Source: Candidatus Latescibacterota bacterium (GTDB lineage Bacteria > Latescibacterota > UBA2968 > UBA8231). From it: DNA of 64,000 bases. Below are positions 33,384 to 51,849 of this stretch, piece after piece. The DNA lies in contig CBDCSU010000006.1 in NCBI GenBank assembly GCA_965221775.1, positions 2,304,001 through 2,368,000 of the forward strand, in the 5' to 3' direction. Position numbers and translations under genes: made by a program. The notes under the pieces were generated by a model. It was not told the DNA's origin. It ran no database searches and was given only the letters and a program-made list of their open reading frames with translations. Each line of letters starts with the position of its first letter. Position 1 is the stretch's first letter.

Positions 33384-34022
33384 TCAGCGGCTGAAGCTGG
33401 CCTTCAAGGCGCCCCAGGCGGTCCGGGCGACGGCGGTCATGGCACCGTCGAGGCGGTCGAACTCCCACTCGCCATCGGCCTCCGCCGTCAGGGTGAGGAG
33501 GTGGTTGTCCACGGACCAGGTGCGGGTCCCGCCTTCCTCGCCGAAGACGGCGAGGAACTCGACCTCCTCGAGGACGACGAAGAACTCGGCCACGTAGGCC
33601 TCCTCGAAGGCCGGGTAGTTGTCGTCGGGGACTCCGTGGGTATCGGCCGCCTGGCGGGCCAGAGCACGGGCGAGGCGGGTGAAGAACCCGGCGAGGTCCT
33701 CGCCGTCGACGCGCAGGTCCAGGCCGGCGATCTCCACCGAGAGGCGGTCCCCCTCTACGCCGTAGGTGCCGCTGCCGCTTGCGGTGATCTGCCCGATGGC
33801 CGGCGCCTCGGCGAGATCGACGCCGGCCAGGAAGCCGTCCTTCACCTCGATGACCTGGTCGATCTCGAAGCTGCCGTCGTCGCCGAAGACCAGCCGGGTG
33901 GTGACCTCGCCGACGCGGTCGTCGACGAAGGCGCCCTCCCAGGTGCCGTGGAGGTCCTCCTCGGCCGACAGGGGAGGCAGGAGCAGGAAGAGGGGGAGGA
34001 GAGAGGCCAGCAGCCGGCGCAT
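33384..34022 (-). CDS. Secreted acidic hypothetical protein with C-terminal WGxLKASF motif
   Basis: ATG 34022 after GAAGGAG; signal peptide MRRLLASLLPLFLLLPPLSA; LHGTW start is lipocalin-like; ends TAVARTAWGALKASFSR. Confidence 0.82.
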   Translation of the reverse strand: MRRLLASLLPLFLLLPPLSAEEDLHGTWEGAFVDDRVGEVTTRLVFGDDGSFEIDQVIEVKDGFLAGVDLAEAPAIGQITASGSGTYGVEGDRLSVEIAGLDLRVDGEDLAGFFTRLARALARQAADTHGVPDDNYPAFEEAYVAEFFVVLEEVEFLAVFGEEGGTRTWSVDNHLLTLTAEADGEWEFDRLDGAMTAVARTAWGALKASFSR

Positions 34023-34039
34023 GCAGTCTCCTTCGAAGG

Positions 34040-35032
34040 TCACGCGTACAGGTGGGCGACGTACTCTTCGTAGCCGTTGTAGAGCAGGGTGTCGCGCCGC
34101 TCGAAGCTCGACAGGCTCGTGGAGATGAAGCGCTCGCTGGCCTGCGACCACCGGGGGTGGGGGACCTCGGGCTCGACGTTGGAGAGGAAGCCGTACTCGT
34201 GGGGGGCCTCGGTGTTCCAGAACGTGGCCGGCTGCTCCTCGATGAACTCGATCCGGACGATCGACTTGAGGCCCTTGAAGCCGTACTTCCAGGGGGTCAC
34301 CAGGCGCAACGGCGGGCCGTGCTGCTTGGGCAGGGCGTGGCCGTAGATGCCCGTCACCAGCAGGGTCAGCTCATTGGTCGCCTCGGCCATGCTCAGGCCC
34401 TCCACGTAGGGCCAGGGGAAGTCGGGCCGGTCCCACTGCCCCGGCGCGACCGAGGGATTGAAGAAGGAGGTCATGCGCACGAAGCGGGCCGAAGACAGAG
34501 GCTCCACCAGGTCGATGAGGGCCTTCATGGGAAAGCCGGTCCAGGGGATGGCCATGGACCACGCCTCGACGCAGCGGTGGCGGTAGAGCCGTTCCTCCAG
34601 GTCCATGCGGCCCACGAGGTCGTCGATGTCCCAGGTCCTGGGCTCGTTCACCAGGCCGGCGATCTCCACCGTCCACGGGGAGGGCTCGAACTTGTCGACG
34701 TACTTCCAGACCTCCTTGCTGGTGGAGAACTCGTAGAAGTTGTTGTAGAGGCCGGCGATCTCCTCGTCGGTGAGGGGCCGGTCGAGGGTGGAGAAGTCCG
34801 GGTTCACCGGCGCCGGGTACCACTGGTCCGGGGGGATCGGCTCGCGGTCCTCGAGGCCGAGGAAGGGCCTGGGATCGACGAGGTCCTTCGGCTGCAGGAG
34901 CCGGTCGGGGATGCAGCCCGAGATCAGGCCGATGGTGCCCAGGCCGGCGCCGCGGAGGAACTTGCGGCGGTTCAGATAGGCGGCCTCGTCGGTGGCCTCC
35001 CGCTCGGGGATCTCCCATTTCCTGCGCGGCAT
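34040..35032 (-). CDS. msrP: Periplasmic protein-methionine-sulfoxide reductase catalytic subunit MsrP (YedY)
   Basis: Tat motif NRRKFL, YNNFYEF, HRCVEAWSM (Mo-ligand Cys), PWKYGFK, VPHPRWSQASER. Confidence 0.95.
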   Translation of the reverse strand: MPRRKWEIPEREATDEAAYLNRRKFLRGAGLGTIGLISGCIPDRLLQPKDLVDPRPFLGLEDREPIPPDQWYPAPVNPDFSTLDRPLTDEEIAGLYNNFYEFSTSKEVWKYVDKFEPSPWTVEIAGLVNEPRTWDIDDLVGRMDLEERLYRHRCVEAWSMAIPWTGFPMKALIDLVEPLSSARFVRMTSFFNPSVAPGQWDRPDFPWPYVEGLSMAEATNELTLLVTGIYGHALPKQHGPPLRLVTPWKYGFKGLKSIVRIEFIEEQPATFWNTEAPHEYGFLSNVEPEVPHPRWSQASERFISTSLSSFERRDTLLYNGYEEYVAHLYA

Positions 35033-35092
35033 TGGCGGCCTCCTTTCCCAGAATGGCAGAGAGAATATACGAGCCTGCCCGCTTCGCGGCGC

Positions 35093-36007
35093 CTATCCCT
35101 TGAAGGCCAGCCCCAGGGCATAGGTCGTGCCCGCCGCGGTGTTGCACCCGGAGACGATGTGGAAGAGATCGGCGCTGATCTCCACCCGGTCGTTGAAGGA
35201 CCAGATCAGCCCCGGCGAGAACTTGAGGTTGTTCTGGTCGCCCACGAGCCCGCCGGTCGCGCCGGTGGCCCCGCAGTCGCCCAGGGTCTGGATCCCCTCG
35301 ATCACACCCTTGACCAGCAGACGGTCGAAGGAGTAGCCGGCCTCCAGGCCGTGGAACAGTTCGTTGCCGTACTCCCCGCCGCGAAGGCGGTAGCCGAGGG
35401 TGCCGGTCACGTACCCCGGCACCGGGTAGAGGGACGTGCCCACCAGCAGGCGCACCTCGGCGTCGGTCTCGCCCGTGCCCAGGGGGACGTAGCTCTCCGG
35501 GATCTCCGTGGGCACGTCGTAGCCGAGGGGGATCTTGCCGCCGGCGGCCAGGGAGACGACGGCCGGATCGGCCATCAGCCGCCAGCGCAGGCGCAGCTCC
35601 AGGTCGGCAAGACCGGAGCTGGACTGGTCCGGATGCTGGCGCACGATGGTGCTGTCGAGGGCCTCGAAGTACCTCGCCTCCGTCGGATTGGTGAACTCCA
35701 GGCTCTTGTACGGCAGGGAGGCCACCATGGTCAGGCGATCCAGCAGGCCGTACTCCAGGTAGGCGGAATAGCCCCGGTCGCTCAGCTCCTCCTGGGGGTC
35801 CTGGGCCCGGTCCCGGCGCTCACCGTCGAGGTCCAGGTAGGCTCGAGAGCTGAAGGAGAGCCCGGCCAGCTTGGAGTAGAAGCCGCCCTGGGGCTGGGTC
35901 CAGGCGCCGGCGTGCAGTTGGGCCGGGGCCGCCGCCAGCAGGAGGGCGGTCAGCGGGATCCACGGCCGGAGGGGGTGAAGGGTCCTGGGTCGGTCGAGGC
36001 TGTTCAT
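35093..36007 (-). CDS. Outer-membrane beta-barrel protein
   Basis: Signal peptide ending LHA-GAW; AYLEYGLLDRLT, GLADLEL, PLGTGE; alternating beta pattern ending YALGLAFKG. Confidence 0.72.
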   Translation of the reverse strand: MNSLDRPRTLHPLRPWIPLTALLLAAAPAQLHAGAWTQPQGGFYSKLAGLSFSSRAYLDLDGERRDRAQDPQEELSDRGYSAYLEYGLLDRLTMVASLPYKSLEFTNPTEARYFEALDSTIVRQHPDQSSSGLADLELRLRWRLMADPAVVSLAAGGKIPLGYDVPTEIPESYVPLGTGETDAEVRLLVGTSLYPVPGYVTGTLGYRLRGGEYGNELFHGLEAGYSFDRLLVKGVIEGIQTLGDCGATGATGGLVGDQNNLKFSPGLIWSFNDRVEISADLFHIVSGCNTAAGTTYALGLAFKG

Positions 36008-36075
36008 AGGTGTCTCTCTGATGTTGGCAAATGGGTCAGACGTCTGGTCTCCAAGGATTGTCCATCTGGGCGAGG

Positions 36076-37095
36076 TCACAACTCCACCCCCCGCTCCCCG
36101 GCATCGGCCGCTGCCTGCACACGCAGGGCCGTCTCGGACGAAGCGAGGACCTGCCCCGTTGTCAGCTCCCCCTCCTCGCGGGGCTCGCCGCGGATCCCCT
36201 TGAGAAAGGCGTCCAGGTATCCGCCGCTGTTGCCGGGGGGCAGGGGACGCCGCTCGACCTTGCGGCCCTTCGCCGGCGCCAGCTCCAGGTGGTCGTCGTT
36301 GGTGGCGGTCTCGAGGACGCCTTCGCGCCCCCAGAAGGTCGTTCTCCAATAGTAAGGCAGGGCGTACCCCGGGCCATCGGGCGCGAAGTAGGAGACATCG
36401 CCCACGACACCGCAGCCGTTGTCCATGGTGAGCAGCATCTGGGCGCCGTCGTGGAAATGGGGGGTCTCGGGGGCGAAGGCGTTCCAGCAGCGCGCCGCCT
36501 CCAGCCGCGTGAAGCGCAGGCCGGTGATGAAGGGGAGCCCGTCGATGGCGTGGATGCCGATGTCGTTGATCGTGCCGCCGTGCTGCCCGGGCTCGAAGTA
36601 CCAGGCCGGACGGGAGCCGAGCATGAGGGGGTGCTGGCCGCCGAACTGGACGGCGTGGATCTCGCCGATGACTCCCTCCCGGATGAGGCCGCGCACCGCG
36701 CGCGGGCCGGCGGCATCCCTCATGGTGAGCATGCACCCCACTTCCAGGCCGCCGGCGGAGGCGAGGGCGCCGATCCGCTCCACCTCCCCCAGGCGGGTGC
36801 ACAGGGGCTTGTCGGCGATCACGTGGAGTCCCCGCTCCAGGGCGGCGATGAGGCGGACGCCGCGCAGGGCGTACACGTCGCCAACGGCCACGGCGTCGCA
36901 CTCGACCTCGTCGAGCAGGCGGTCCACCTCGCGGTGAGTGATCTCGATGCTCGATCCGGCCAGCTCGCGGCGGGTCTCCCCGTCCTCCTCGCAGGCTCCT
37001 ACGACGCGGACCCCCGGCGTGGCGAGGGCGCGCTCGTGGAGGCTGTGGATGTGGGCGTGGCGGAACCCGATGAAGGCGATGCGCACGTCGTCCAA
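36076..37095 (-). CDS. Gfo/Idh/MocA oxidoreductase (start approximate, TTG 37095)
   Basis: IAFIG, HVIADKP, GGTINDIGIHAID. Confidence 0.88.
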   Translation of the reverse strand: MDDVRIAFIGFRHAHIHSLHERALATPGVRVVGACEEDGETRRELAGSSIEITHREVDRLLDEVECDAVAVGDVYALRGVRLIAALERGLHVIADKPLCTRLGEVERIGALASAGGLEVGCMLTMRDAAGPRAVRGLIREGVIGEIHAVQFGGQHPLMLGSRPAWYFEPGQHGGTINDIGIHAIDGLPFITGLRFTRLEAARCWNAFAPETPHFHDGAQMLLTMDNGCGVVGDVSYFAPDGPGYALPYYWRTTFWGREGVLETATNDDHLELAPAKGRKVERRPLPPGNSGGYLDAFLKGIRGEPREEGELTTGQVLASSETALRVQAAADAGERGVEL

Positions 37096-37222
37096 GGTGG
37101 TCTCCAGAGAAGGGGATTGCAGATGAACCAAAGGCCGCGGCGCCTGCGGTCAAGCGGCGCTGGCGGGTTCCGGTCGCCCCCGGTTACCTTGAACCGGGGG
37201 CCGAATCACGGGGGGAAATGGC

Positions 37223-38065
37223 TTGAACTTCCGCAAGGCAGTGGTGGTCGGCGCCGGTACCATGGGCCGGGGCATCGCCCAGGTGCTTCTGGAGGCCGGC
37301 CTGCACGTGGGGCTGCACGACGCCTCGGGGGCCGTCCTCCAGGCGGCGGTCGACTCGGTCCGGGAGCGGGTGCGCCGCCGCCGCGATCGCGGAGAGATCG
37401 GCGGCGATCCGGATGAGATCGCCGGGCGGCTGCGCGCTCTCGCGGAGCTGTCGGACCTGGCCGGTACCGACCTGGCGATCGAAGCGGTTCCGGAGCGCCT
37501 CGACCTGAAGCAGGACGTTCTCGCCCGGCTCGACGCCGTGCTGCCTCCCGGGGCGGTACTGGCCTCCAACACCTCGGGGCTGGACCTGTCGGCGCTGGCC
37601 GGCGCCACCGGCCGCCCCCATCGGGTGGTGGGCCTGCATTTCTTCAACCCGCCCCCGGCCATGCCTCTGGTGGAGATCATCGCCGCGCCGCGGACGTCCC
37701 CGGAGGTGGTGACTGCCGTGGCCGGGCTGGCGCGCCGCTGCGGCAAGACCCCGATCGAGGTCGGCAACCGGCCTGGATTCGCCGTCAACCGGCTGCTCTT
37801 CGCCATGGTCGCCGAGGCGGTCCGGGCCCTGGAGGAGGGGGTCGCGTCAGCGGAGGATCTGGACCGCGCCGTGCGCCTGGGCGCCGGCCATCCCATCGGC
37901 CCCCTGGCGCTGGCCGACTTCGTCGGGCTCGACGTCTGCCTCGATATCCTCGAATCCCTCGAGGCCCGCCTCGGCCCCCGGTACGCGCCGCCCGGGCGAC
38001 TCCGCCGGCTGGTCGCGGAAGGCCGGCTGGGGCGCAAGACGGGGGGCGGGTTCTTCGACTATTGA
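37223..38065 (+). CDS. 3-hydroxyacyl(butyryl)-CoA dehydrogenase
   Basis: VVGAGTMGRGIA, IEAVPE, ASNTS, GLHFFNP, PGFAVNR, GRLGRKTG.GFFDY. Confidence 0.93.
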   Translation: MNFRKAVVVGAGTMGRGIAQVLLEAGLHVGLHDASGAVLQAAVDSVRERVRRRRDRGEIGGDPDEIAGRLRALAELSDLAGTDLAIEAVPERLDLKQDVLARLDAVLPPGAVLASNTSGLDLSALAGATGRPHRVVGLHFFNPPPAMPLVEIIAAPRTSPEVVTAVAGLARRCGKTPIEVGNRPGFAVNRLLFAMVAEAVRALEEGVASAEDLDRAVRLGAGHPIGPLALADFVGLDVCLDILESLEARLGPRYAPPGRLRRLVAEGRLGRKTGGGFFDY

Positions 38066-38177
38066 GAGATCCGCGCCACCGGGTCGTGAGGCCCGCCGCC
38101 GGGCCCGCTGCGCGGCCGCCCCGCCGGCCGACGGGGGCCGCGCCAGGCCATGAGGGCGCCCCACGGGGACCGACGCC

Positions 38178-39563
38178 ATGTTGAGATTCCCCCGCGCAGG
38201 TCTGCTGGCTGCCGGGGGGGTGCTGACCGGCGTCTTCCTGTGGCTCCGGGCCATCGGCGATCTCGGCGAGAACGTGCCCGGGATGTGGCTGGCTCTGTTG
38301 CCGGCCCTGGCCGCCTGGGCATACGCCGCCTGGCTGGTGCTGCGCTCCCCCCGCGCGGCGGCCGGAACCGCCGCCGTCGTGGCCGGCTTCGCCGTCCTCT
38401 TCCGGCTGCTGCTGCTCGACACCCCGCCTTCCCTGTCCGACGACATCTACCGCTACCTGTGGGACGCGCGGGTGCAGGCCTCCGGCGGGAATCCATATGC
38501 ACGAGCCCCGGACGCCGCCTCCCTCGCACCGCTACGGAACGACGACTGGGGGCGGATCAACCACCCCGAGCTCGTCACCATCTATCCGCCGGTGGCGCAG
38601 TGGTTCTTCCGGGCCGCCCACGCGGCATGGCCCGGGGCCACCGGGCTGAAGGCGGCCCTCGTCCTCGGCGACCTGCTGCTGCTGGCCGTGCTCTGGCGGC
38701 TGCTGAAGCATCGCGGGCAGAATCCGCTGCGGGCCCTGCTCTACGCCTGGCATCCCCTGCCCGTCATCGAGATCGCCGGCAACGGCCACGTCGATACCCT
38801 CGGTGTGACGCTGATGATGCTGGGTCTGCTGTTCCTGGCGTCGGGCCGCCGGCACGGGGCGGCCCTGGCCCTGACGGCGGCGATCCTGTCCAAGATGGTC
38901 CCCGTGCTGTGTCTGGCCGCCTTCTGGCGATCCTGGGAACCGGCGGACTCGCGGGGCTGGCGGCGGTGGCTCGATCCGATACCGCGCCGGCCCCTGGTGT
39001 GGGTGCCCCTCGGCGCGGCCGCCGCCTGGCTCGCGTACGCCGACGCCGGCGGGGCCATGTGGTCGGGGCTGCGGACCTTCGCCCTCAAGTGGCGTCACAA
39101 CGACAGCCTCTACGGCCTGGTCTACTCCCTGCTCGCCGACCCGAAGCCCGGCTGGGAGTGGGACGACGGCGCCCTGATGACGGCCCGCTGGATCTGCCTG
39201 GCGGGGCTCGCGGCGGTGACCGCGGGGGCGGCCGCCGGCTGGCGCGACCCGGTGCGCGCCGTCGCGGCCTCCACGGGGGCCCTGCTGCTGCTGTCCCCCG
39301 TGGTGCATCCCTGGTACCTGCTCTGGGTCCTGGCCTTCCTGCCCATGTACCCGGCACCGCCGTGGATGGCTTTCAGCTGGCTCGCCTTCCTCGGCTACGA
39401 GGCGCTCATGCCCTACCGCGGAACGGGGACGTGGCAGTCCTCGGGATGGGTGGCCTGGGTCGAGTACGGCCCGGTGTACCTGCTGCTCGGCTGGTGCCTG
39501 GTCCGGTGGGCCGCCGCTCGACGCGGCGCCGTGAGCAGGGAGACGGTCTCCGACCGGGCATGA
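38178..39563 (+). CDS. GT-C (GT87/DUF2029-like) integral membrane glycosyltransferase
   Basis: LSDDIYRYLWD, NPY, IYPP, YAWHPL..EIAGNGHVD, SPVVHPWY; multiple TMs. Confidence 0.82.
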   Translation: MLRFPRAGLLAAGGVLTGVFLWLRAIGDLGENVPGMWLALLPALAAWAYAAWLVLRSPRAAAGTAAVVAGFAVLFRLLLLDTPPSLSDDIYRYLWDARVQASGGNPYARAPDAASLAPLRNDDWGRINHPELVTIYPPVAQWFFRAAHAAWPGATGLKAALVLGDLLLLAVLWRLLKHRGQNPLRALLYAWHPLPVIEIAGNGHVDTLGVTLMMLGLLFLASGRRHGAALALTAAILSKMVPVLCLAAFWRSWEPADSRGWRRWLDPIPRRPLVWVPLGAAAAWLAYADAGGAMWSGLRTFALKWRHNDSLYGLVYSLLADPKPGWEWDDGALMTARWICLAGLAAVTAGAAAGWRDPVRAVAASTGALLLLSPVVHPWYLLWVLAFLPMYPAPPWMAFSWLAFLGYEALMPYRGTGTWQSSGWVAWVEYGPVYLLLGWCLVRWAAARRGAVSRETVSDRA

Positions 39564-39639
39564 AGCCGCCGATCCCGGTGCGTATATTCAATTTCTTCAT
39601 CCTCGCCGACGTCTCCTCTTCCCCGATCCAGGTCTCGTC

Positions 39640-40440
39640 GTGAGTTCCGGTACCTCTCCCTGGAAACTGTCCCTGTGCCTGCTCGCACTGGCCGCGGCCG
39701 CCTGCACCCAGGTCGCCCGCCAGCCGCGGCAGAGTGCCGTGCCCTGGTGGGAGGCCGGGGGGAACCCCGCCGGGACGGAGGAGGTCCAACAGGACACGTC
39801 CGCCCAGGCAGTGGCTGAAGCCGAAGAGGGGGTGTCCGCGCTCGAAGCCGCGGAGCCGCCCGACTCCGTCGCCGCCGCCGGGGAGAGAGCTCACCCGCCG
39901 GAGGCCGTGGAGGGTCCGGACTCCCTGGCGGCTGCCGGACCGGCCGCCGAAGCCGCTCCGGCCGGTCCCGGAGGTCCTCCGGAGGTCGAAGCTGCCCGTC
40001 CCCCGGAGAGGCCGGCACCGTCCCCGGAGGTGGTGCAGGCGCAGCGGCGGGCGTACGAGTCCCGCACTCGGGAGGACCGGGAGCGGGTCGAGCGGGTGAA
40101 CGAATACGCTCTCTGGTGCATCGAACGGGGCCTCTGGGAGGAGGCGCGGATCCACCTCGAGCAGGCCGTCGCCGTGGACAGCCTGTCGGCGAGCCTGCAC
40201 AACAACCTGGGGATCCTCTACGAACGGCTCGGAGAGCGGGAGAAGGCGCGGGCGGCGTATGAGTTCGCCGCCCGGCTGGCCCCCGGTAAGCGGTTGTACC
40301 AGGCCAATCTTGGCTACCTCCGCAGGGCCGAGGAGGCCCGCGGGGTACCGGCGGACAGCGTCGACATCGACGGACTGCCGAAGGCCAGGGAACGCCGCCG
40401 AGGGACCGCCCCGGCGCGGGAAACGCCGGAGGAAGGGTGA
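39640..40440 (+). CDS. TPR-repeat lipoprotein with Pro/Ala/Glu-rich linker
   Basis: Lipobox AAAC; low-complexity linker; TPR-like GLWEEARIHLEQA, HNNLGILYERLG..EKARAAYE. Confidence 0.82.
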   Translation: MSSGTSPWKLSLCLLALAAAACTQVARQPRQSAVPWWEAGGNPAGTEEVQQDTSAQAVAEAEEGVSALEAAEPPDSVAAAGERAHPPEAVEGPDSLAAAGPAAEAAPAGPGGPPEVEAARPPERPAPSPEVVQAQRRAYESRTREDRERVERVNEYALWCIERGLWEEARIHLEQAVAVDSLSASLHNNLGILYERLGEREKARAAYEFAARLAPGKRLYQANLGYLRRAEEARGVPADSVDIDGLPKARERRRGTAPARETPEEG

Positions 40441-43400
40441 TGCCCACCATGAACTCTCGTGAACGCCGCATCCGCACCGGCGCCCTGCTGCTGGCCGCCG
40501 CCATGGCCTGGCAGCCGGGCGTCGCCTCGGCCCAGGACATCCTGTCCTCCCAGCTGCGCCAGGGCTTCGGCAAGAACAAGGTTCGCTACAAGGACTTCGA
40601 CTGGCACTTCGTCGAGAGCGAGCACCTGCTCCTCCACTACGAGCCGGAGTTCGAGGACCTCGCCGACCGGGCCGTGGAGTACCTCGAGGAGGCCTACCTC
40701 CACATCAGCGCCCTCATGCGCCACGAGCTGTCGACCAAGCCGCCCATCGTCATCTTCAAGTCCCACTACGAGTTCCAGCAGACGAACATCATCCAGGCGT
40801 TCCTGCCGCCCGGGGTGGCCGGCTTCGCCGAGCCCCTGCGCTACCGCATGGTGATCCCCTTCAACGGCGATCTCGACGACTTCCGCAACGTCCTCACTCA
40901 CGAACTGATGCACATCTTCCAGTACGACATCGTGAACCGGGGACCGGTGCGGCGCATCTCCAACCCCATCGCGCGGCCGCCCACGTGGATCATGGAAGGC
41001 CTGGCCGAGTACTCGACGGAGGAGATGAACACCATCGACGAGATGGTGCTGCGCGACGCGGTGCTGACGGACCGGCTGATCCCTCTCGAGGTGATGGACT
41101 CGAGCTGGAACTACCTGCCGAACACGTTCCTGGCCTACAAGCAGAGCCACAGCCTGATGGAGTACATGGCGGCCAACTTCGGGCCCGAGAAGGTGAGCCG
41201 CATTCTGCGCGTGTGGGACCAGCAGACCGATACGGACCGGCTCCTCGAGCGCCTCATCGACATGGACATGAGCACCCTCGACGAGCGCTGGCAGGCGCAC
41301 ATGCGCAAGCGCTACTGGCCGCTGCTGCAGCACCGCGACTACGTCTCCGAGTTCGCCAACCGCGTCGTCGACAACGACGAGATCCACGGCCTGTACATGT
41401 CGCCGGAGTGGTCCCTGGGAGGCGACATGCTCGCCGTGCTGAGCACCGACGGGGTGGAGCAGCACGTCGACATCATCCGGGTCAGCAACGGCCGCCGGGT
41501 GCAGCGTGTCACCACCGGCATGCGCACCCGCGTCTTTGACGACCTGACCTTCGGCGACGGCACCGTCGCCTGGGCGCCGGACGGAAGCACCATCGCCCTG
41601 GTGGGCAAGGACGGTCCGAAGGACGCCATCGTCCTCTGGGACCTGTACGACAAGAAGCTGGTGAACACCCTCTCCTTCGACGATATCGAGATCGTCGAGG
41701 GACTCGACTGGGCGCCGGACAGCCGCCGCCTGGCCTTCGTGGGCACCGGCTACGGGCAGAGCGACCTCTACCTCGTGGACGTGGCCACCGAGCAGGTCCG
41801 CCAGTTGACCGGGACGTCCAGGCGGGAGGACCACCCCGACTTCCATCCCGACGGGAGGCGCCTCGCCTTCAGCGCCAAGGTGGAGGGCCAGTTCGACATC
41901 AAGGTCTACGACCTCGACACGGGGAGCCAGTCCACGCTGGTGGCCACGCCGGGCGACGACCTGTGGCCGGAGTGGACCCCGGAGGGCAACAGGCTCCTCT
42001 TCGTCTCCACCCGCGAGGGCATCAACGACCTGTTCCTGCAGGATCTCAGCGATGGCCGCGAGTACCGACTGACGCGCACCCTCTCCGGCATCATGAACCC
42101 CTCCCTGTCTCCCGACGGCCAGCAACTGGTGCTCAACACCTACTACCACAGCCGCCGGGAGATGTACCGCATGGACATGCCCACCATGCCGGAGCTGCGG
42201 CTGCGCAGCGACGAGCTGGCGGCGCGGGTCGGCGCCGGGCCGGTGGTCGCCGCCGAGGCCACCGAGGCCGGTGGCGAGAGGCCGTCCGGGCCGGACCCCA
42301 TCCTCCTCGTGCAGAAGGGGGCGGCCGACACCGCAGCCGCGGCCCTGGCCCGGGCCACCCGCCTCGGCCTGGAGGAGGCGGTGGCCATTCTCGACCGCAA
42401 GGCGGACACCAACCAGGCGATGAAGCTGGCGGAGGCCTCCGGCGGCGACGCCGGTCCGGCGGCGGCCGGCGAGGGCGGGATCCCCTCGCCGACGGGGGGC
42501 CTGGAGGACGTGGGCGATGCCCTGCGGCGGGACACGGCGCGGCTCCCGGGCAGTCCCGAGAGCGCCCTGGAAGGGCTGCCCCGGCGGCGGTACACGCCCA
42601 AGCTGGAGTTCGACGGGGTGGCTCTGCAGATGGGCTACTACTCAGGCTTTCTCGCCGGGGTGGCCCAGTTGAGCATGAGCGACCTCCTGGGCAACCACGA
42701 CCTGAACATGTTCACCGACTACGTGGGTTCCCAGGAGATCAACAACGATTTCACCTTCGCCGCCGGCTACAGCTACCATGGCCGCCGGCCGACGTACAGC
42801 GCCATGGTCTTCAACTGGAACCAGTACTTCAACGACAACGAGGGCCGGGGCCCCTTCGGGGGCTACTACGGGATCGGCGCCCGTCTCACCCGGGGGCTGG
42901 TGCGCAGCCGCCAGACCGGGGTGCTGGCGGACATGAGCTATCCCCTCGACGTGTACCGGCGTGTCGAGCTGTCGTACTCCTTCGTCGACGAGCAGCGCGA
43001 GATCGCGTGGCCGGTACAGGAGCCGATCGACGGCTACAGCACGCACCTGTTCAAGGCCGCCTACGTCCACGATTCCCTCAACATCGGGCTCCTCGGGCCC
43101 ACTGCGGGCCGGCGCTACTACCTGTCCGCCGGGCGCACCCTGGCTCTGAGGGAAGGGGACCGCAACTTCACCCACGTGGAGGTCGACTACCGCCACTACC
43201 TGCGCCTGGGCCGCTGGTCGGTCCTCGGGTTGCGGGGCACGGGCATCGGCTCCCTGGGGCGCGACGGCCTCGAGTACAACCTCGGCGGGCCGGCCTGGTT
43301 CCTGCCCTTCTACCCGGGGTACAACCTCAATGTCGGGCCGCTGCGGGGCTACGCGTTCTCCAAGTTCACCGGCACCCGCGTGGCCCTCGTCAACGGCGAG

Positions 43401-43712
43401 ATCCGCGTGCCCTTCATCCGCAACATCACCTTCGGCTGGCCCGGGACGTTCGCCATTCCCGCCGTGGACGGCGCCATCTTCGCCGACCTGGGGAGCGCCT
43501 GGAAGAAGGACCAGACCCTCGACCCGTGGCCGCTGCAGAGCCCCCACGTCGAGGTCGACCCGGCGGCGGAGCGGGTGCGCCTCCAGGGCGGCGTCGGCTT
43601 CGGCCTGCTCGTCTATTTCCTGGCGCCGCTGAACTTCGAGTTCGCCCGGCGCACCGACTTCAAGGACATCTCGGGGTGGCACATGCACTTCAGCTTCGGG
43701 CGGAGCTTCTGA
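40440..43712 (+). CDS. Zinc-peptidase + PD40/TolB-like beta-propeller + Omp85 (BamA/TamA-family) barrel fusion
   Basis: Signal peptide; FGKNKVRY; LTHELMH...WIMEGLAEY; repeats WAPDG, WAPDS, FHPDG, WTPEG, LSPDG; Omp85 LRGY motif, FADLGSAW, C-terminal FSFGRSF. Confidence 0.88.
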   Translation: MPTMNSRERRIRTGALLLAAAMAWQPGVASAQDILSSQLRQGFGKNKVRYKDFDWHFVESEHLLLHYEPEFEDLADRAVEYLEEAYLHISALMRHELSTKPPIVIFKSHYEFQQTNIIQAFLPPGVAGFAEPLRYRMVIPFNGDLDDFRNVLTHELMHIFQYDIVNRGPVRRISNPIARPPTWIMEGLAEYSTEEMNTIDEMVLRDAVLTDRLIPLEVMDSSWNYLPNTFLAYKQSHSLMEYMAANFGPEKVSRILRVWDQQTDTDRLLERLIDMDMSTLDERWQAHMRKRYWPLLQHRDYVSEFANRVVDNDEIHGLYMSPEWSLGGDMLAVLSTDGVEQHVDIIRVSNGRRVQRVTTGMRTRVFDDLTFGDGTVAWAPDGSTIALVGKDGPKDAIVLWDLYDKKLVNTLSFDDIEIVEGLDWAPDSRRLAFVGTGYGQSDLYLVDVATEQVRQLTGTSRREDHPDFHPDGRRLAFSAKVEGQFDIKVYDLDTGSQSTLVATPGDDLWPEWTPEGNRLLFVSTREGINDLFLQDLSDGREYRLTRTLSGIMNPSLSPDGQQLVLNTYYHSRREMYRMDMPTMPELRLRSDELAARVGAGPVVAAEATEAGGERPSGPDPILLVQKGAADTAAAALARATRLGLEEAVAILDRKADTNQAMKLAEASGGDAGPAAAGEGGIPSPTGGLEDVGDALRRDTARLPGSPESALEGLPRRRYTPKLEFDGVALQMGYYSGFLAGVAQLSMSDLLGNHDLNMFTDYVGSQEINNDFTFAAGYSYHGRRPTYSAMVFNWNQYFNDNEGRGPFGGYYGIGARLTRGLVRSRQTGVLADMSYPLDVYRRVELSYSFVDEQREIAWPVQEPIDGYSTHLFKAAYVHDSLNIGLLGPTAGRRYYLSAGRTLALREGDRNFTHVEVDYRHYLRLGRWSVLGLRGTGIGSLGRDGLEYNLGGPAWFLPFYPGYNLNVGPLRGYAFSKFTGTRVALVNGEIRVPFIRNITFGWPGTFAIPAVDGAIFADLGSAWKKDQTLDPWPLQSPHVEVDPAAERVRLQGGVGFGLLVYFLAPLNFEFARRTDFKDISGWHMHFSFGRSF

Positions 43713-43714
43713 GG

Positions 43715-45250: not shown

Positions 45251-45298
45251 GTCGCGACCTCCTGTGGGTGCGGCGCCCTCGCCGGGGCGCTCGGGGTC

Positions 45299-45326
45299 AA
45301 TATACGGAGGGAGCCTTCCCGGTCAA
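45299..45326 (-). promoter_or_regulatory. Putative sigma70 promoter for the Gly/Tyr-rich lipoprotein gene
   Basis: Minus strand TTGACC-16 nt-TATATT. Confidence 0.6.
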
Positions 45327-45364
45327 CGGCTTTCGGGGCTCGCCCGGGGGCCTCGGGGACCGGG

Positions 45365-46735
45365 TCAGAACAGGTAGCGGACTCCCATGAAGACGCGGTT
45401 CACGTCCACGTCCTCCCGCAGCTCCAGTTCGTTCTCGCCTTCGGCCTGCTCGTAGTTGCCGCGGGTATAGGCCAGGTCGATGCGCACCGCCTCCTCCACG
45501 GCGACCCCTGCGCCGAGGGTGTAGAACCGCCGGTCCCGGAGTACCCGGATCAGGGGGTTGTCGACCGGGTCCGGAGTGCGGGTCGGGTCCCGGGGCCCGA
45601 CGAAGGGCAGGGGGTCGGAGTAGTACCCGGCGCGCAGATCGACGGCCGCCCAGGGCACCTGCCACTCGGCTCCGAGGTGCCAGCGCAGGACGTCGGCGTA
45701 CTGGTCCTCGAAGGAGGTGTCGGTACGCAGCTCGAAGGGGTCGTCGTCGGTGTACTCGGTCTGGGTCCACTCGGTGGCGTGGACCGAGGCGGCCAGCGTC
45801 ACCTGTGGCACGGGCCGGCCGGAGACGCCGAGTCCGAAGGAGAGGGGCAGGGCGATTCGGTAGCTGCTCTTGAACTCCTCGCTCGGCGTCTCCACAAGCT
45901 CCCCGTTGTCGGATTCGACGGAACTGAAGTGTGGTTGGGGCGGGGCCCGCCAGGTGTAGCTGACCTTGTGCGAGGAACCGGTGGCCATGGTGACGCCGAG
46001 GCGCAGCCGCGGGTCGTCCCGGGGGGTGCGCACCATGGCGCCGAGGGTGGCGGTCCAGGTCGTGCCGTAGTCGTCGACGAAGACCTCGCGCTCGGTGAAG
46101 CGGCTCTCGTAGAAGAAGTCCTCCGTGTCGATGGAGACGAACTCCGAGGTCCACTCGTCCTCGCCGCCGATGAGGCTGAGGGTGGCGCCAACGGAGACCG
46201 AGGGGCTCACGTCGATGGCGCCGGCCACGGAGGTGATGGCCAGCTCGCCCTCGTGGCGGAAGCTGTCGTCGTAGGCGAGGCTGTCGCCGAGGACGGCCCC
46301 GGCCGCATCCCGGACCACCGGCACCAGGGGGTAGTCGAGGGCCCAATCGAAGTCCTTGACCCGGTTGAAGCCCGCCGCCAGCACGAGACTCCCCCGGTAC
46401 ACGGGCACCGGATAGACGAAGCCCAGGCTGCCGAAGCGGGTGTTGCTCACGTCGGCGATGGCACTGTTCTCGATCGGTGTCCCGAATCCGGCGACGGCCC
46501 GGTTCTGCCGGGCGTTGCGCAGGAAGGCGACGTTGATCTCGCGCTGGCGCATCTGCGCCAGACCGGCGGGGTTCCAGTAGACGGCGGTGAAGTCGTCGGC
46601 GAGGCCGGCGAAGGCGCCGCCCATCGCCATGGCGCGGACTCCGACGCCGGCGAAGTTGTCGATGGCCCGCTCTTCCTGGCCGGCGGCGGCCGTGGCCAGG
46701 ACGAGCAGGGCGATGGGGGTTCGGAAGTGGCGCAT
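45365..46735 (-). CDS. OmpP1/FadL/PorV-superfamily outer-membrane barrel
   Basis: Signal peptide; GVRAMAMGGAFAGLADD.TAVYWNPAGL; LRAGY; C-terminal GVRYLF. Confidence 0.87.
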   Translation of the reverse strand: MRHFRTPIALLVLATAAAGQEERAIDNFAGVGVRAMAMGGAFAGLADDFTAVYWNPAGLAQMRQREINVAFLRNARQNRAVAGFGTPIENSAIADVSNTRFGSLGFVYPVPVYRGSLVLAAGFNRVKDFDWALDYPLVPVVRDAAGAVLGDSLAYDDSFRHEGELAITSVAGAIDVSPSVSVGATLSLIGGEDEWTSEFVSIDTEDFFYESRFTEREVFVDDYGTTWTATLGAMVRTPRDDPRLRLGVTMATGSSHKVSYTWRAPPQPHFSSVESDNGELVETPSEEFKSSYRIALPLSFGLGVSGRPVPQVTLAASVHATEWTQTEYTDDDPFELRTDTSFEDQYADVLRWHLGAEWQVPWAAVDLRAGYYSDPLPFVGPRDPTRTPDPVDNPLIRVLRDRRFYTLGAGVAVEEAVRIDLAYTRGNYEQAEGENELELREDVDVNRVFMGVRYLF

Positions 46736-47502
46736 CAGAAACTCTCGCTGTAGCGAACGGTGATCTCGCGGCTGAGGTCGGCGGAGGGTCCGCCAGGCGC
46801 CGTCCGGTCCCCGTTCTGGAGGAAGTTCTTGAGCAGGAAACCGAGCCTCAGGCTCCGGGTGGGCGACCAGTTGACGCCCCCGTTGGCGTATCCCCGGTTC
46901 AGGGCCCAGGAGTCGTCGCCGCCGTGGCGGGCGAGGTCGTACTCGGCGATGAAGATGAGCCTGTCGCTGAACCGCTTGTCGGCGCCGAGCCACCCGGAGA
47001 GGCCGCCCTCCTCTTCGAGGGACCAGCTCAGGCCCCCGTGAAAGCCGAGCTGGCCGAGAGTGGTCCCGTAGTTCTTGCTGGAGGCCAGGTAGATCCCCTT
47101 GCCCCGGACCTGGTACCTGCCGTGGGCGTGGGCCCCGTATCCCTGGGTGTCGTACCCCGCCGTCAGGGCGGGCATGCCGGTGCTCTCCTCGACGAGGCGG
47201 CAGCGAGCCGCTGCCTCGACCCTGGGATACCAGTCGACCTCGTCGTCGCCGATGACCCCCTCGCCCCCGAAGGCCAGGCCGACGGCCAGGCGCTGCAGGA
47301 GTCCGGCGTCGACCTGGCCCATCAGGCCGCCTCCCGGGAACAGCCTCAGGTCGATGGCGAATTGTCCCTTGTCGAGGAGGCCGGCGGTGGGACTGTCCAC
47401 GAGGCGCACCAGCTCCGGCGGCCCGTACTGGGCGCCCGCGGGACCCGCCCGGACCGCGGCCAGCATCGCCAGTGCCGGAAGCCATGAGCGGTAGGAGGTC
47501 AA
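46735..47502 (-). CDS. YjbH-like outer-membrane beta-barrel protein
   Basis: TTG 47502 overlapping the tsaE stop; signal peptide; LVDSPTAGLL, IAEYD, C-terminal VRYSESF. Confidence 0.68.
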   Translation of the reverse strand: MTSYRSWLPALAMLAAVRAGPAGAQYGPPELVRLVDSPTAGLLDKGQFAIDLRLFPGGGLMGQVDAGLLQRLAVGLAFGGEGVIGDDEVDWYPRVEAAARCRLVEESTGMPALTAGYDTQGYGAHAHGRYQVRGKGIYLASSKNYGTTLGQLGFHGGLSWSLEEEGGLSGWLGADKRFSDRLIFIAEYDLARHGGDDSWALNRGYANGGVNWSPTRSLRLGFLLKNFLQNGDRTAPGGPSADLSREITVRYSESF

Positions 47503-48002
47503 GCGCCCCTCCCGGGACCGGCGCCGGTGTCGGGCCGCCGCCATCGGATGCGGCGCTCCTGCTCCTGCTCTCCGTGGCGGAGCTCGATCCGCCACCGCTT
47601 CTCGGGGAGCAGCTCGGGAAGGCGGTCCGCCCACTCCACGAGGGTGACGGCGTCGGCCTCGTGGAAGAACTGGTCGGCGCCGATCTCCGCCAGCTCGTCC
47701 ACCGTCGCGAGGCGGTAGAGGTCGAAGTGGTAGACCCGCAATCCGCTGCCTTCCCCGGTGCCCTCGTAGACGTTCAGCAACACGAAGGTAGGGCTGTTGA
47801 CCACCTCGTCGACACCCAGACCGGCGCAGATTCCCTGCACGAGGCAGGTCTTGCCGGTGCCGAGGTCGCCTTCGAGGGCCACGAGGTCTCCCGGCACCAG
47901 GGCGGCAGCCAACTGGCGGCCGAAGCGCCGGGTCTCGGAGGCGCAGCGGGTGCGGCGCTCACCCGCGCAGGCGAGATCCGCGGTCACCGTAGAGGGAGAC
48001 AC
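47499..48002 (-). CDS. tsaE: t6A biosynthesis ATPase TsaE
   Basis: GDLGTGKT, VNSPTF, YHFDLYRL, VEWAD. Confidence 0.95.
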   Translation of the reverse strand: MSPSTVTADLACAGERRTRCASETRRFGRQLAAALVPGDLVALEGDLGTGKTCLVQGICAGLGVDEVVNSPTFVLLNVYEGTGEGSGLRVYHFDLYRLATVDELAEIGADQFFHEADAVTLVEWADRLPELLPEKRWRIELRHGEQEQERRIRWRRPDTGAGPGRGA

Positions 48003-48186
48003 CGCACGAGTGGGGTTGGGAGGGCATCTGCATGAGCGACGGTGGAGAGGTCCCTGACAAGAGGGACCATCTTGCCGCCGGGATGTTCCTGCCGGACGGG
48101 GGAGGACTGGGCCGGGCCGCCAGGGAGCGGCGGCGGTGCGGGGGCATCCACCGCGTGAGAGCGGCGGCTTCCCCGGGGTTGGTGCT

Positions 48187-48639
48187 TCAGCCGCCGGAGG
48201 CGCGCCGGCTGTCCATGGGGATCACCGACTCATCCCCGCCCTCGACGGGCTCGGGCGCCTCCGCCCCCATGGCGTCCACACCTTCATTCTCGTCGACATC
48301 CATGGAGCAGTTGCCCTGGAAAACGGCGCCCTCGGAGATGGCCAGGGCGTTGGAGTTGATGTCTCCCACGACCCGTGCCTGGCTGTCGAGGCGGACCTTG
48401 TCGCCCCGCACGTTGCCGTGCACGACTCCGTTGATGTAGACATCGCGGCCGTCGAGCTGGGCATGGGCCTCTCCCGACTGGCCGATGGTGAGCGTTCCCG
48501 TGCACGACAACTCGCCCTTGAAGGTGCCGTCGATGCGCACGCTGTTGTCCACCTTCATGACTCCCTCGAAGGTGGTGCCGCGGCCGACGATCGTGTTCAG
48601 GGTCTCGCCGCCGCCGTTCTCTTCCTTTTTGCCCAGCAT
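48187..48639 (-). CDS. Bactofilin (polymer-forming cytoskeletal protein)
   Basis: ATG 48639 after GGAGG; TIVGRGTTFEG...RIDGTFKG...INGVVHGNV...ISEGAVFQGNCSM beta-helix repeats. Confidence 0.93.
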   Translation of the reverse strand: MLGKKEENGGGETLNTIVGRGTTFEGVMKVDNSVRIDGTFKGELSCTGTLTIGQSGEAHAQLDGRDVYINGVVHGNVRGDKVRLDSQARVVGDINSNALAISEGAVFQGNCSMDVDENEGVDAMGAEAPEPVEGGDESVIPMDSRRASGG

Positions 48640-48767
48640 TGCCTTGTCTGTCCTCCGGCTGCTTCCGGTGAAACCGGGCAAGCCGCCCAAACTGTCGAAC
48701 ACTCTGCTCATCAGGCGGCCAATATAGGACCGGGCCGCGGACGGGAAAAGGGCCGCGAGAAACCCGG

Positions 48768-49928
48768 TCACTTCTTCTTTTTCTTGGATTTTCTGCCTTC
48801 GACTCTGCCATTGGCGCGAAGCCGCTCGACCACGGCGAGCACGGCGGCCTGGGTCGGCTCCTCTACGGCGGTCATCTCTATGACGGGGACGTCCTCGTCC
48901 TCGCAGCCCCTGAGGATGTGTTCCTGGATTCGGAGGATGCGATCCAGATCGGAGAGGGACTTGCGCGGCGTCCTGGCGGGGGCCTGGACCTCCCGCTTGG
49001 CGAAGCGCGTCTCGTAGGCCTCGCGGTCGGTCAGGGCCAGGCAGATGGGCACGATGATGGCGTTCTCCTCGAAGGCTTTCCACCGCGAGACCCCGGGGAG
49101 CAGGTGCACGCCGTCGATGATGGCGCTCGCATTCTCCTCGATGCAACGGGACATGATGGCGCGCACGCCGACGCCGACGACCCGGGACTGTTCGTGGAAG
49201 GCGGTTACCACAGGGTCGAGACCGTCCTGGATGTCGGCAGCCTCGGCGTCGTAAGAGGAATCGTGGATGGAAGGCATGAAGTCCCTGGCCAGCGTCAGGC
49301 GCAGGATCTGCCGGATGTCGTCGGTGGCCACGACGCGGGGGATGTCGAGGACGTTGGCAAGACTGACGGCCAGCGTCGTCTTGCCGACGCCGGTGGCGCC
49401 GCCGATGAGGATCACGAGGGGCTGGTCCAGATCCCTCCAGTCCCGCCAGGTCCGGTAGAGCTCGGCGGAGCTCTCGCCGCATCTCTCTAGGATGACCTCC
49501 TGAACGAGGTTCTCCAGTTCGCCGTGGCCGATGCGCCCCGTCCGCTTGTCGAGGAGGTGTTCCTCCACGGTGCGGGCGAGCTCGTAGGAGCGGTCGGGGG
49601 AGAGGCCGGCGGCCTGGATCGAGTGGGACAGCAGCTCGCGAGAGAAGGGACGGGGGCCGGCGTCGCGGTCGACGGTGATCGTCGTCGGCGACGGTTCCCA
49701 GAACAGGAGGTTGCCGAGGGGGCGGTCCGGATGGTCGCGCTCGAGGAGGCTGGCGAGCAGATCGAGGATCTGTCCTCGTTCCACCTCCTTGCGCCGGCGC
49801 ACCTCGGTACGCACCTCGTCGGCGATGCCGTAGGCCTCGTCGTGATCGAAACCGCGCTGGAGGAGATGGTGGACGAGCATCCCCCGCATGAAGGGGATGC
49901 GCTTCTTGCCGTCGACGATGGTAGCCAT
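48768..49928 (-). CDS. 2-phosphoglycerate kinase-like P-loop kinase with tandem ATP-cone domains
   Basis: Two RxPF-initiated ATP-cone-like segments (RIPFMRGML, RPFSRELL); PLVILIGGATGVGKTT, TDDIRQILR, IIDGVHLLPG, IQEHI. Confidence 0.85.
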   Translation of the reverse strand: MATIVDGKKRIPFMRGMLVHHLLQRGFDHDEAYGIADEVRTEVRRRKEVERGQILDLLASLLERDHPDRPLGNLLFWEPSPTTITVDRDAGPRPFSRELLSHSIQAAGLSPDRSYELARTVEEHLLDKRTGRIGHGELENLVQEVILERCGESSAELYRTWRDWRDLDQPLVILIGGATGVGKTTLAVSLANVLDIPRVVATDDIRQILRLTLARDFMPSIHDSSYDAEAADIQDGLDPVVTAFHEQSRVVGVGVRAIMSRCIEENASAIIDGVHLLPGVSRWKAFEENAIIVPICLALTDREAYETRFAKREVQAPARTPRKSLSDLDRILRIQEHILRGCEDEDVPVIEMTAVEEPTQAAVLAVVERLRANGRVEGRKSKKKKK

Positions 49929-50035
49929 CGGCGCAAGAACCTACCCGGGCCACCTGGGAGGAGCAAGGCAGGCGGCCTTCGGGGGGATATATTATCCGCC
50001 GTTTCCACACTCCGTTCCCCATGGGAGTTCAGGTC

Positions 50036-51172
50036 ATGTCCAATCCGATTTCCGATCTTGGCCGGCAGGGCCAGAGCGTCTGGTACGACAGCCTCCGCCG
50101 GGGTCTCATCACCAGCGGCGGGCTGGAGCGGCTGATCGCCGAGGACGGCCTGCGGGGGATGACCTCCAACCCCGCCATCTTCGAGAAGGCCATCGCCGGG
50201 TCGGACGACTACCGGGGGGTGCTGCGCCGTCACGCCGCCGCCGGTCTCTCGCCCCTGCAGATCTACGAGGCGATCGCCGTCGAGGACATCCAGTGGGCGG
50301 CCGACGCGCTGCTGCCGGTGTACGAGGAGTCGGAGGGCCGCGACGGCTTCGTCTCCCTCGAGGTCTCGCCGCACCTGGCCCACGACATGGGGGGAACCGT
50401 CGACGAAGCCCTGCGCCTGGCCGGAGAGGTGGGGCGGCGCAACCTCATGATCAAGGTGCCGGGAACACGGGCGGGCGTGCCCGCCATCGAGCGGCTGATC
50501 GGGGAGGGGGTCAATGTCAACGTCACCCTGCTCTTCGCGCGGGACTGCTACGCCGCCGCCGCCGAGGCCTGGCTCAAGGGCCTGGAGAGCCTGCTCGAGA
50601 GGGGCGGTGACGTAGCCGCCGTCTCCAGCGTGGCCAGCTTCTTCGTGAGCCGCATCGACACCCTCATCGACACGCGGATCGACGAGCGCCTGGCCGAGGA
50701 GGGCGACGCCGTGCGCCGCGTCGCCCTCGGCGCCCTGAAGGGCCGCGCCGCCATCGCCAACGCCAGGCTCGCCTATCAACACTACCGCGGCCTCGTCGCC
50801 GGAAAGCGCTGGTCCCGCCTCGCAGCCGCCGGCGCCAACCCTCAGCGCCTGCTGTGGGCGAGCACGAGCGTCAAGAACCCGGCCTACCGCGACGTGCTCT
50901 ACGTGGAGGAGCTGATCGGCCCGGACACGGTGAACACCCTGCCGGAGGCGACCTTCGACGCCTTCCGCGATCACGGGGTCGTGGAGGCCACCCTGGAGAA
51001 GGGCGTGGACGAGGCCCGCGAGGTGATGGCAGCCCTCGAGGGGCTCGGCATCTCGATGCAACGTGCTACCGACCAGTTGTTGGAGGACGGCGTGCGCCTC
51101 TTCGTGGAGCCCTTTGACCAGTTGCTGGCTGCCATCGAGACCCAGTGCGAGGCCCTGCCTCGCCGCGCGTGA
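50036..51172 (+). CDS. tal: Transaldolase (long type)
   Basis: GQSVWYD, GMTSNPAIF, VSLEVSP, MIKVP, NVTLLF, SFFVSRID, LWASTSVK. Confidence 0.95.
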   Translation: MSNPISDLGRQGQSVWYDSLRRGLITSGGLERLIAEDGLRGMTSNPAIFEKAIAGSDDYRGVLRRHAAAGLSPLQIYEAIAVEDIQWAADALLPVYEESEGRDGFVSLEVSPHLAHDMGGTVDEALRLAGEVGRRNLMIKVPGTRAGVPAIERLIGEGVNVNVTLLFARDCYAAAAEAWLKGLESLLERGGDVAAVSSVASFFVSRIDTLIDTRIDERLAEEGDAVRRVALGALKGRAAIANARLAYQHYRGLVAGKRWSRLAAAGANPQRLLWASTSVKNPAYRDVLYVEELIGPDTVNTLPEATFDAFRDHGVVEATLEKGVDEAREVMAALEGLGISMQRATDQLLEDGVRLFVEPFDQLLAAIETQCEALPRRA

Positions 51173-51849
51173 ACCCCCGCCACGTGAGATTCGACCGCGT
51201 ACCCCCCGCGGTCCTGGCGGTGGCCCTGATATCCGTCCAGTGCGCCGACCGTGGAGCCGGACCGCCCGCCCCGCCTGGTGCGGATGTGGAGGAGTGCTTC
51301 GCCTGCACCCCCGAGGCCGCCATGGACCATCTCCAACACGCTTTCGGGGAGCGCGACCCGGACCTCTACGAGAGGCTGCTGGACGACGGTTTCCTGTTCA
51401 CCGAGGCGAACTGTCTGGGCGAGGTCCGGTATCACAATGGCAAGCAGGTGGAGCTGGAGGTCATGGGCGGGCGCGACTCGCCGCGGGGGATCTTCGACGT
51501 CTTTCGCACCATCGAGTTCGGATTCTGGGCAGACGACAGGCGTGAGGAGCCGGGGGCTGACTCGCCCCCGGCCTTCGAGGGAGATCCGGACGGCCATCCG
51601 GAGGAGGACTGGCTCGTCTTTCGAGGGCGGGTGGAGTTGCTGCTGCTGACAAAGCCGGACGAAGGGCTCTTCGTCGATCAGGTGATGACCTTCAAGCTGC
51701 GCCAGGAAGAGGACGGCATGTGGCGCATCCGGCGATGGGCCGGCGACCCCCTGGTGAGAGAGTGCTCGGAGAGCGGTGAAGAGCCGACGGTGGCGACGGA
51801 GTCCTGGGGCCGTATCAAGGCCTCCTTCACGGAGGCGACCCGTGGCTGA
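51169..51849 (+). CDS. Putative lipoprotein, NTF2-like fold, with C-terminal WGxIKASF motif
   Basis: GTGA overlap with tal; hydrophobic stretch ending in Cys (ISVQC); AFGERDPDLYERLLDDGFLF...WRIRRW; tail PTVATESWGRIKASF. Confidence 0.75.
   Translation: MNPRHVRFDRVPPAVLAVALISVQCADRGAGPPAPPGADVEECFACTPEAAMDHLQHAFGERDPDLYERLLDDGFLFTEANCLGEVRYHNGKQVELEVMGGRDSPRGIFDVFRTIEFGFWADDRREEPGADSPPAFEGDPDGHPEEDWLVFRGRVELLLLTKPDEGLFVDQVMTFKLRQEEDGMWRIRRWAGDPLVRECSESGEEPTVATESWGRIKASFTEATRG

Follow-up and report, generated by a model that had tools for sequence, protein, structure and literature searches.

A peptide-sized C-terminal tail on exported proteins of Latescibacterota and its association with motor-less type IX secretion

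The closest described counterparts of the element reported here are type IX secretion system (T9SS) signals. In the available part of PMC10994853, the T9SS signal is described as a folded β-sandwich, the C-terminal domain (CTD), in which one conserved Lys contacts PorV, and substrate extraction is described as driven by the GldLM motor. According to the accessible portions of two other papers, sites of the sortase PorU favour S, T, N or D before the cut and G, S or A after it (PMC5445135), and measured sites include T/GI and T/SL (PMC11969387). We identified a 12-residue C-terminal tail on many exported proteins of a Candidatus Latescibacterota bacterium (GCA_965221775.1), two of them encoded in a stretch of 64,000 nucleotides (contig CBDCSU010000006.1, positions 2,304,001 to 2,368,000; "the window"). 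The tail co-occurs with PorU and with a motor-less T9SS, and shares a linker with CTD cargo.

An initial annotation of the window noted that two exported proteins, P0001 and P0002, end in a similar motif, and proposed a shared sorting-type tag. The features concerned are as follows.

33384..34022, minus strand: P0001 gene, encoding a secreted protein of 212 aa, one of five paralogues, each of which has the tail (sequence and AlphaFold2)
33963..34022, minus strand: Sec signal peptide predicted for P0001, some 20 residues long (sequence and hydrophobicity heuristic)
33402..33437, minus strand: tail of P0001, a T-A-V linker, with a candidate PorU site between its T and its A, and a W-G-x-L-K core (profile, alignment and model)
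51169..51849, plus strand: P0002 gene, encoding a putative lipoprotein of 226 aa, with two paralogues elsewhere in the genome that have W-S-x-V-K tails
51241..51243, plus strand: candidate lipidated Cys of P0002, in a non-canonical lipobox (sequence; regular expression on homologues)
51784..51819, plus strand: tail of P0002, a P-T-V linker variant and a W-G-R-I-K core, then nine variable residues (profile)

Both open reading frames (ORFs), their coordinates and their tails were confirmed when the sequence was re-read, and 8 of 14 residues are identical between 33393-33434(-) and 51787-51828(+). The two proteins are not homologous over their full length, as BLASTP aligns a C-terminal stretch only (47 aa, 32%, E 8e-4). 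Two details of the shared string are coincidental to this pair: the ASF ending is not conserved among the 43 tails described below, and A follows V in only 3 of them. The fold labels given to the proteins stand only in part. Lipocalin-like rests on a Lipocalin_4 match over the cut-off for a P0001 paralogue (P0001 itself matches no model), and NTF2-like on a weak DUF4440 match of P0002 (E 0.037), the only one found.

The motif is not limited to these two proteins. In the source genome (G000; 5.36 Mb, 6 contigs, completeness 96.8%, contamination 7.75%), the tail is at the C-terminus of 43 of the 4,088 called genes (profile score at least 21.9; the next gene scores 5.1), and none of 1,348,242 internal positions scores 12 or more. 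The profile was built from the terminal matches themselves, so the evidence lies in the internal control and in the score gap. The tails follow the consensus [TS]-A-V-x3-[ST]-W-[GA]-x-[IVL]-K, with 2-15 residues after K. All 43 tails have the W, the G or A, the I, V or L, and the K; T or S at -7 and V at -5 are each present in 40, and [TS]AV stands at the fixed position in 29. When the core W-G-x-[ILVM]-K was sought in 50,010 six-frame ORFs, 38 of 60 matches fell within the last 15 residues. This corresponds to densities of 56 and 40 per million positions terminally versus 1.0-1.2 more than 100 aa from the stop, an enrichment of about 40-50-fold. One further carrier lies in an uncalled ORF, and two lipoproteins of this genome have W-S-x-V-K variants. 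Searches of the carriers showed no Pfam or NCBIfam model that covers the tail; a PDB sequence search with the tail profile returned one chance match (E 3.7), and an ESM Atlas search only unnamed clusters. We found no description of the tail among the top-ranked papers that literature searches listed, although subscription papers and supplements could hold one.

The tail lies outside the predicted folded core, both in the model of P0001 and in that of a fibronectin type III (FN3) protein introduced below. In the AlphaFold2 model of P0001 (pLDDT 82) the last core strand stops at residue 190, residues 194-207 have pLDDT below 50, and a low-confidence helix spans 200-210; a helix is also predicted for the tail of the FN3 protein, outside the fold. 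None of the tails contains a transmembrane (TM) helix, as the initial annotation held (the highest Kyte-Doolittle mean over 19 residues is 1.14). The W, G and K are invariant among 24 aligned relatives of P0001, and the residues after K vary even in close homologues. Of 65 homologues of P0002, 45 still have W[GAS]x[IVLM]K within 25 residues of the C-terminus and 20 have lost it, and two in this family combine an internal CTD-like domain with a tail, which we attribute to drift; 35 have a lipobox by regular expression. A basic residue occurs at K+4 in 14 of 35 tails of this genome. In the scan of Genome Taxonomy Database (GTDB) genomes described below, the last residue is R or K in 84 of 104 tails, giving K-x3-R, with the length fixed by the search pattern.

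The helix predicted in both models, and a hydrophobic residue at W+6 or W+7 in 34 of 43 tails (mean hydrophobic moment 0.38, with no background computed), would also suit an envelope tag independent of the T9SS. Such a tag would be an amphipathic membrane helix, or the signal of another peptidase or receptor, and the co-occurrence with PorU would then reflect shared ancestry. We consider this explanation quite unlikely. The invariant W and K (43/43) and the fixed T-x-V spacing suggest a protein reader rather than bulk lipid binding.

Once the tails are removed, the 43 carriers belong to 16 unrelated families, the largest with 20 members. They are 52-347 aa long (median 261), and their domains include CBM9-like, Cache, lipocalin, LTD, temptin, Rieske and GmrSD_C. 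A signal peptide was called in 33 of 43 carriers versus 549 of all 4,088 genes (13%), in agreement with the view that the tag marks exported proteins. The call is a crude hydrophobicity heuristic, and it under-calls signal peptides, because only 31 of 71 type A CTD cargo proteins were detected. Among the ten carriers without a call, inspection by eye, once the starts were corrected, shows a hydrophobic N-terminus in eight; the other two are a fragment and a membrane anti-sigma factor.

We identified genes for a T9SS in this genome: SprA, 14 PorV-family matches, two PorU proteins over the cut-off, PorU2-like and PorZ-like proteins, and 71 type A-like and 28 type B-like terminal CTD genes. GldM was not found, by a search that was positive in 32 of 131 genomes of a second phylum; GldK, GldL and GldN were not searched.

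The distribution of the tail follows that of PorU. Our sample of the phylum comprised 121 genomes, and 67 of the 120 others were taken for machinery searches. In family f1, all 40 other genomes have 6-120 pattern matches versus 0-2 for a reversed control. A looser pattern that left out the linker gave too much noise for profiling. PorU exceeds the cut-off in 41 of the 42 genomes that represent 11 families, and tails were found in all 11 (in f14, as six in-frame matches). PorU is over the cut-off in none of 25 genomes of f2, f3 and f4. There, 20 of 44 genomes have 1-3 pattern matches, the control level; 19 inspected matches from 14 genomes are all internal or in spurious ORFs, and the matches in the remaining six share one string with an inspected spurious match. 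These three families retain PorV (25 of 25 genomes; 6-27 paralogues), SprA (5 of 5 examined) and 7-29 CTDs (17 examined). We considered f8 and f10 as tail-less families, but this was ruled out by low-copy tails on signal-peptide proteins in 8 of 16 genomes (a count that leaves out G012 and G048, with short ORFs, and G038).

A similar pattern was found in the second phylum, sampled as 131 genomes centred on a cultured Ignavibacteria genome and searched with a strict pattern that misses variants. The tail is present in 41 genomes, all with a PorU match (40 over the cut-off). Thus, tails occur in 41 of 94 genomes with a PorU match and 0 of 37 without one, and in 41 of 69 PorU-positive, GldM-negative genomes and 0 of 32 GldM-positive genomes.

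A strict pattern matched at least 120 GTDB loci, 80 of them titled, with a few chance matches in short ORFs. Among the matches listed, titled carriers are from Ignavibacteria, Kapabacteria, Calditrichaceae, Eisenbacteria, Krumholzibacteria, Latescibacterota, Poribacteria, Zixibacteria and Bacteroidota, which bears out the mention, in the initial annotation, of similar tails in FCB-related lineages and Poribacteria. The matches listed form 42 clusters, of which 41 are small, with CHRD, spondin, LamG, beta-helix and LTD domains. The other is a family of 41 proteins of about 133 aa (L091:4004-4396 and 40 relatives) that consist of a signal peptide, an FN3 fold and the tail. This protein is single-copy in 40 of 41 genomes, from Ignavibacteria, Kapabacteria and Calditrichia, cultured species included, and is unnamed where a source name exists (Rosettibacter and Melioribacter records). 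No recurrent non-cargo machinery gene was identified beside tail genes in 4-kb flanks of the 80 titled loci. Neighbours of Ignavibacteria carriers (a MATE-like transporter, SpoIID, Maf and YtxH) were considered as machinery and rejected as housekeeping synteny.

Some tails read A-P-E-P-S-T-W or V-E-P-S-T-W, which we take to resemble PEP-CTERM starts, and these domains (CHRD, spondin, LTD, LamG) also occur on carriers. It is nonetheless very improbable that the tail is an abridged PEP-CTERM or GlyGly-CTERM signal on which an exosortase or rhombosortase acts. The tail lacks a TM helix, this genome has no PEP-CTERM match, and exosortase (PF09721) was found neither here nor in any of 10 other f1 genomes (8 of 68 genomes overall have it); rhombosortase was not searched. 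Chance, or the remnant of one paralogue family, is negligible as an explanation. It would account for the 20 of 43 carriers in one family, but it conflicts with the 16 families in this genome and the 42 GTDB clusters, with the terminal enrichment, and with reversed-pattern controls of 0-3 matches per genome versus up to 120.

The linker connects the tail with CTD cargo. The T-A-V of the tail fits the PorU cut-site pattern, judging from the residues on either side. Type A CTDs of this genome have [TS][AGSD]V in front of them in 27 of 69 cases (background 5.7%), type B CTDs in 1 of 28. In other genomes it precedes the CTD in 7 of 31 cases where PorU is present (best 30 of 300 rows) and 1 of 58 where it is absent (best 60 of 176 rows); about five rows are mis-anchored, and many PorU-negative rows are orthologues. 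A profile of the FN3-plus-tail family matches an FN3 domain that precedes a CTD here (E 1e-3), with the linkers of tail and CTD in register. An envelope tag independent of the T9SS is difficult to reconcile with this placement of the tail where a CTD would follow the same FN3 domain, with the coincident loss of tail, PorU and linker, or with the lack of other recurrent machinery in the flanks. In its favour, the phylogenetic contrasts are few, and an anti-sigma factor and a Rieske protein are among the carriers.

A second linker, [AGST]-K-[PAS]-[VAL], precedes 6 of 69 type A CTDs of this genome (background 0.9%) and many tails of the P0002 lipoprotein family. Unlike T-A-V, it persists in PorU-negative genomes. 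We also observed that f2, f3 and f4 (e.g., G007, G058, G063, G073 and G103) have a T9SS without PorU over the cut-off and CTDs without the cut-site linker; they may be a lineage that secretes without clipping.

Thus, we infer, at about even chance, that the tail is a peptide-sized, non-Ig T9SS signal processed by PorU. A carrier would be exported by Sec. The element recognised would be the W-G-x-I-K helix, including its invariant Lys, and not an Ig-like CTD of 80 residues; its reader would be either PorU itself or a PorV-family shuttle at SprA. Cutting and transpeptidation would follow at the T-A-V linker, between T/S and A/G, with attachment to a surface glycan, so that tail proteins would be located at the cell surface. 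In f1, the cut would need either a PorU with a Ser nucleophile or a Cys-bearing PorU2-like paralogue.

The last point arises from the PorU sequences. The available part of PMC5562754 describes P. gingivalis (Porphyromonas gingivalis) porU C690A as a catalytic mutant. To locate the catalytic position, we aligned with PorU sequences from GldM-positive genomes rather than with the P. gingivalis protein (4 of 44 rows did not parse). The two copies in the source genome are listed here.

L040:14260-17856 and L041:8502-12179 (G000 C5:944256-947855 and C4:1166498-1170178): both PorU copies of the genome, His-Ser rather than His-Cys

The catalytic Cys is present in f5, f7, f8, f9, f10, f11, f12, f13 and f14, as it is in all 12 genomes read from the second phylum. 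In this genome the His-Cys pair occurs only in the PorU2-like paralogue. PorU2-like proteins were rejected as the determinant of the tail, as f2, f3 and f4 have them without tails, and G083, G002, G003 and G005 have tails and a single C25 protein.

Several observations weigh against processing of the tail by PorU. The catalytic position is Ser (codon AGC or AGT), with the His kept, in 13 PorU copies from 11 of 11 f1 genomes read, and likewise in the one f6 genome read, G009. G083 and G009 have no second C25 protein, only the Ser type, so cleavage is doubtful where tails are most numerous. The tail is predicted to be helical, whereas CTD motifs are β-strands, and most CTDs lack the linker (42 of 69 here and 24 of 31 in other PorU-positive genomes), the spacing of which is shifted in Ignavibacteria and Poribacteria. 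Tails number only 0-2 in f8 and f10, despite PorU and up to more than 100 CTDs there. A quick PorV tree (71 proteins from 11 genomes; 60 of 80 matches) contained no clade restricted to tail-positive genomes. Families f2, f3 and f4 share one class, and PorU loss there may be a single event; in the second phylum, GldM and PorU are probably split by class, so those counts are not independent. Co-occurrence across both phyla may represent only two or three evolutionary events, and we place no weight on Fisher values. Both readable pairs of paralogues, one with tail and one with CTD-like domain, have extra domains between passenger and CTD, and are not clean exchanges. Some carriers are lipoproteins, and P0167 and P0200 combine an internal CTD-like domain with a terminal tail. 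The following two carriers fit plain secretion poorly and are hard to accommodate.

L037:5505-6236 and L027:5109-5537: tail-bearing zf-HC2 anti-sigma factor and Rieske protein

The former is a membrane protein and the lowest-scoring carrier; the latter has a Tat-like start.

That the Ser is uniform and encoded by two different codons suggests that it is under selection, as a serine nucleophile or as part of an inactive scaffold. In the second case the tail could be an uncleaved docking peptide that binds PorU or another T9SS component and tethers small proteins to the attachment complex or to large cargo. We regard this as unlikely, although it would explain why T-A-V and W-G-x-I-K stay conserved where Ser replaces the catalytic Cys (f1 and the f6 genome read). 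Lipoprotein carriers would need no new anchor, and the single-copy Ignavibacteria FN3-plus-tail protein resembles an adaptor more than cargo. Carriers are also found near type B CTD genes: 5 of 43 are adjacent versus 1.1 expected (p 0.004), and 6 of the 20 members of the largest tail family are within two genes of one. However, carriers show no enrichment beside type A cargo (1 of 43 adjacent), the linker matches a cut site and disappears from CTD cargo with the loss of PorU, and a Cys-type PorU is kept in most tail-bearing lineages. Beyond processing of the tail by PorU, we tentatively propose that motor-less T9SSs of the FCB superphylum and Poribacteria use a third, helical, peptide-sized signal class that does without a folded CTD, and that the f1 PorU, having changed its nucleophile from cysteine to serine, cuts it and anchors small proteins by the dozen at the cell surface.

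Other observations concern the genes around carriers and CTDs. A CTD-like-domain paralogue is present for 4 of the 16 tail families (e.g., Cache domains 52% identical over 307 aa). CBM9-like tail genes adjoin pairs of type B-like CTD genes encoding 640-1,080 aa (L013, L014, L015, L018 and L019). Nine proteins of G000 (e.g., C6:1382671-1384965) have a CTD-like domain that is internal rather than C-terminal, and P0167 and P0200 have both such a domain and a terminal tail. At L022:6967-15504 (G000 C5:282963-291503), one strand encodes a tail protein, a lipoprotein-like protein, a PorV-like barrel, a 1,097-aa TPR protein, ExbB and ExbD, a candidate TonB-type energiser for the motor-less T9SS. Within the window, 45365-46735(-) encodes a FadL-type barrel with weak PorV-family matches, and 40440-43712(+) a peptidase-MA/PD40/Omp85 fusion; the porU-porV operon holds a TolB-like propeller gene of similar size to the latter (L040:6941-10066). 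The sole Rfam match in the window is a tRNA at 63628-63711, and from 63870 an ORF resembles a phage-type integrase by eye; together they mark a possible island boundary. In one study, 2 of 4 runs yielded RNA contigs identical to the P0001 gene at its 3' end, too little to demonstrate expression.

If the tail is a T9SS signal, a 12-residue signal in motor-less, PorU-bearing systems would show how cargo is recognised outside the gliding Bacteroidota, and a location could be assigned to thousands of hypothetical proteins in uncultured phyla. The tail could also serve as a compact display tag. It is testable, as cultured Ignavibacteria carry one conserved tail protein. The Cys-to-Ser change in PorU is a separate question on sortase chemistry. 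New here are the contrast between PorU-bearing and PorU-less lineages, the disappearance of the linker from CTD cargo, the contrast over GldM and the Cys-to-Ser PorU.

The proposal of a shared C-terminal tag is supported, and none of the three conditions set for its refutation was borne out. The accompanying claim that it belongs to none of the known sorting systems holds in that the tail is not a CTD, but is too strong because the evidence ties it to the T9SS sortase PorU. In PEP-CTERM/exosortase, GlyGly-CTERM/rhombosortase and LPXTG/sortase systems, a short tag occurs on unrelated small exported domains and its copy number varies widely between genomes, as for the tail, which differs in having neither a TM helix nor a basic cluster. 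Type A CTDs (TIGR04183/PF18962, with PorV and with PorU NF033709 and NF033707) resemble the tail in C-terminal position, Sec export, mixed passengers, the [TS]-small-V linker and co-occurrence with SprA, PorV and PorU; many tails of the GTDB scan end in K-x3-R/K, and CTD motif E is KxxxK. From linker to end, the tail has about 14-27 residues versus about 80, a predicted helix and invariant W rather than a β-sandwich, no PxGxY motif D by alignment and no TIGR04183 match. Its carriers are short next to the type A median of 659 aa, and it was not found in the GldM-positive genomes searched. In the accessible portion of PMC11969387, Prevotella intermedia has short CTDs of 43-55 aa that are still cleaved and glycosylated, with three β-strands and motifs B, D and E; the tail is a third to half that length and lacks those folds. 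Type B CTDs with PorP/SprF shuttles set the precedent of a second class of signal served by a shuttle of its own (available part of PMC12618676), and this genome has many PorV paralogues besides its type B-like cargo. Unlike the tail, type B signals are folded domains that rarely have the linker, and no dedicated shuttle clade was found for the tail. The tail belongs neither to the type A and B CTD families nor to the TM-bearing CTERM systems, but it probably functions as a CTD does.

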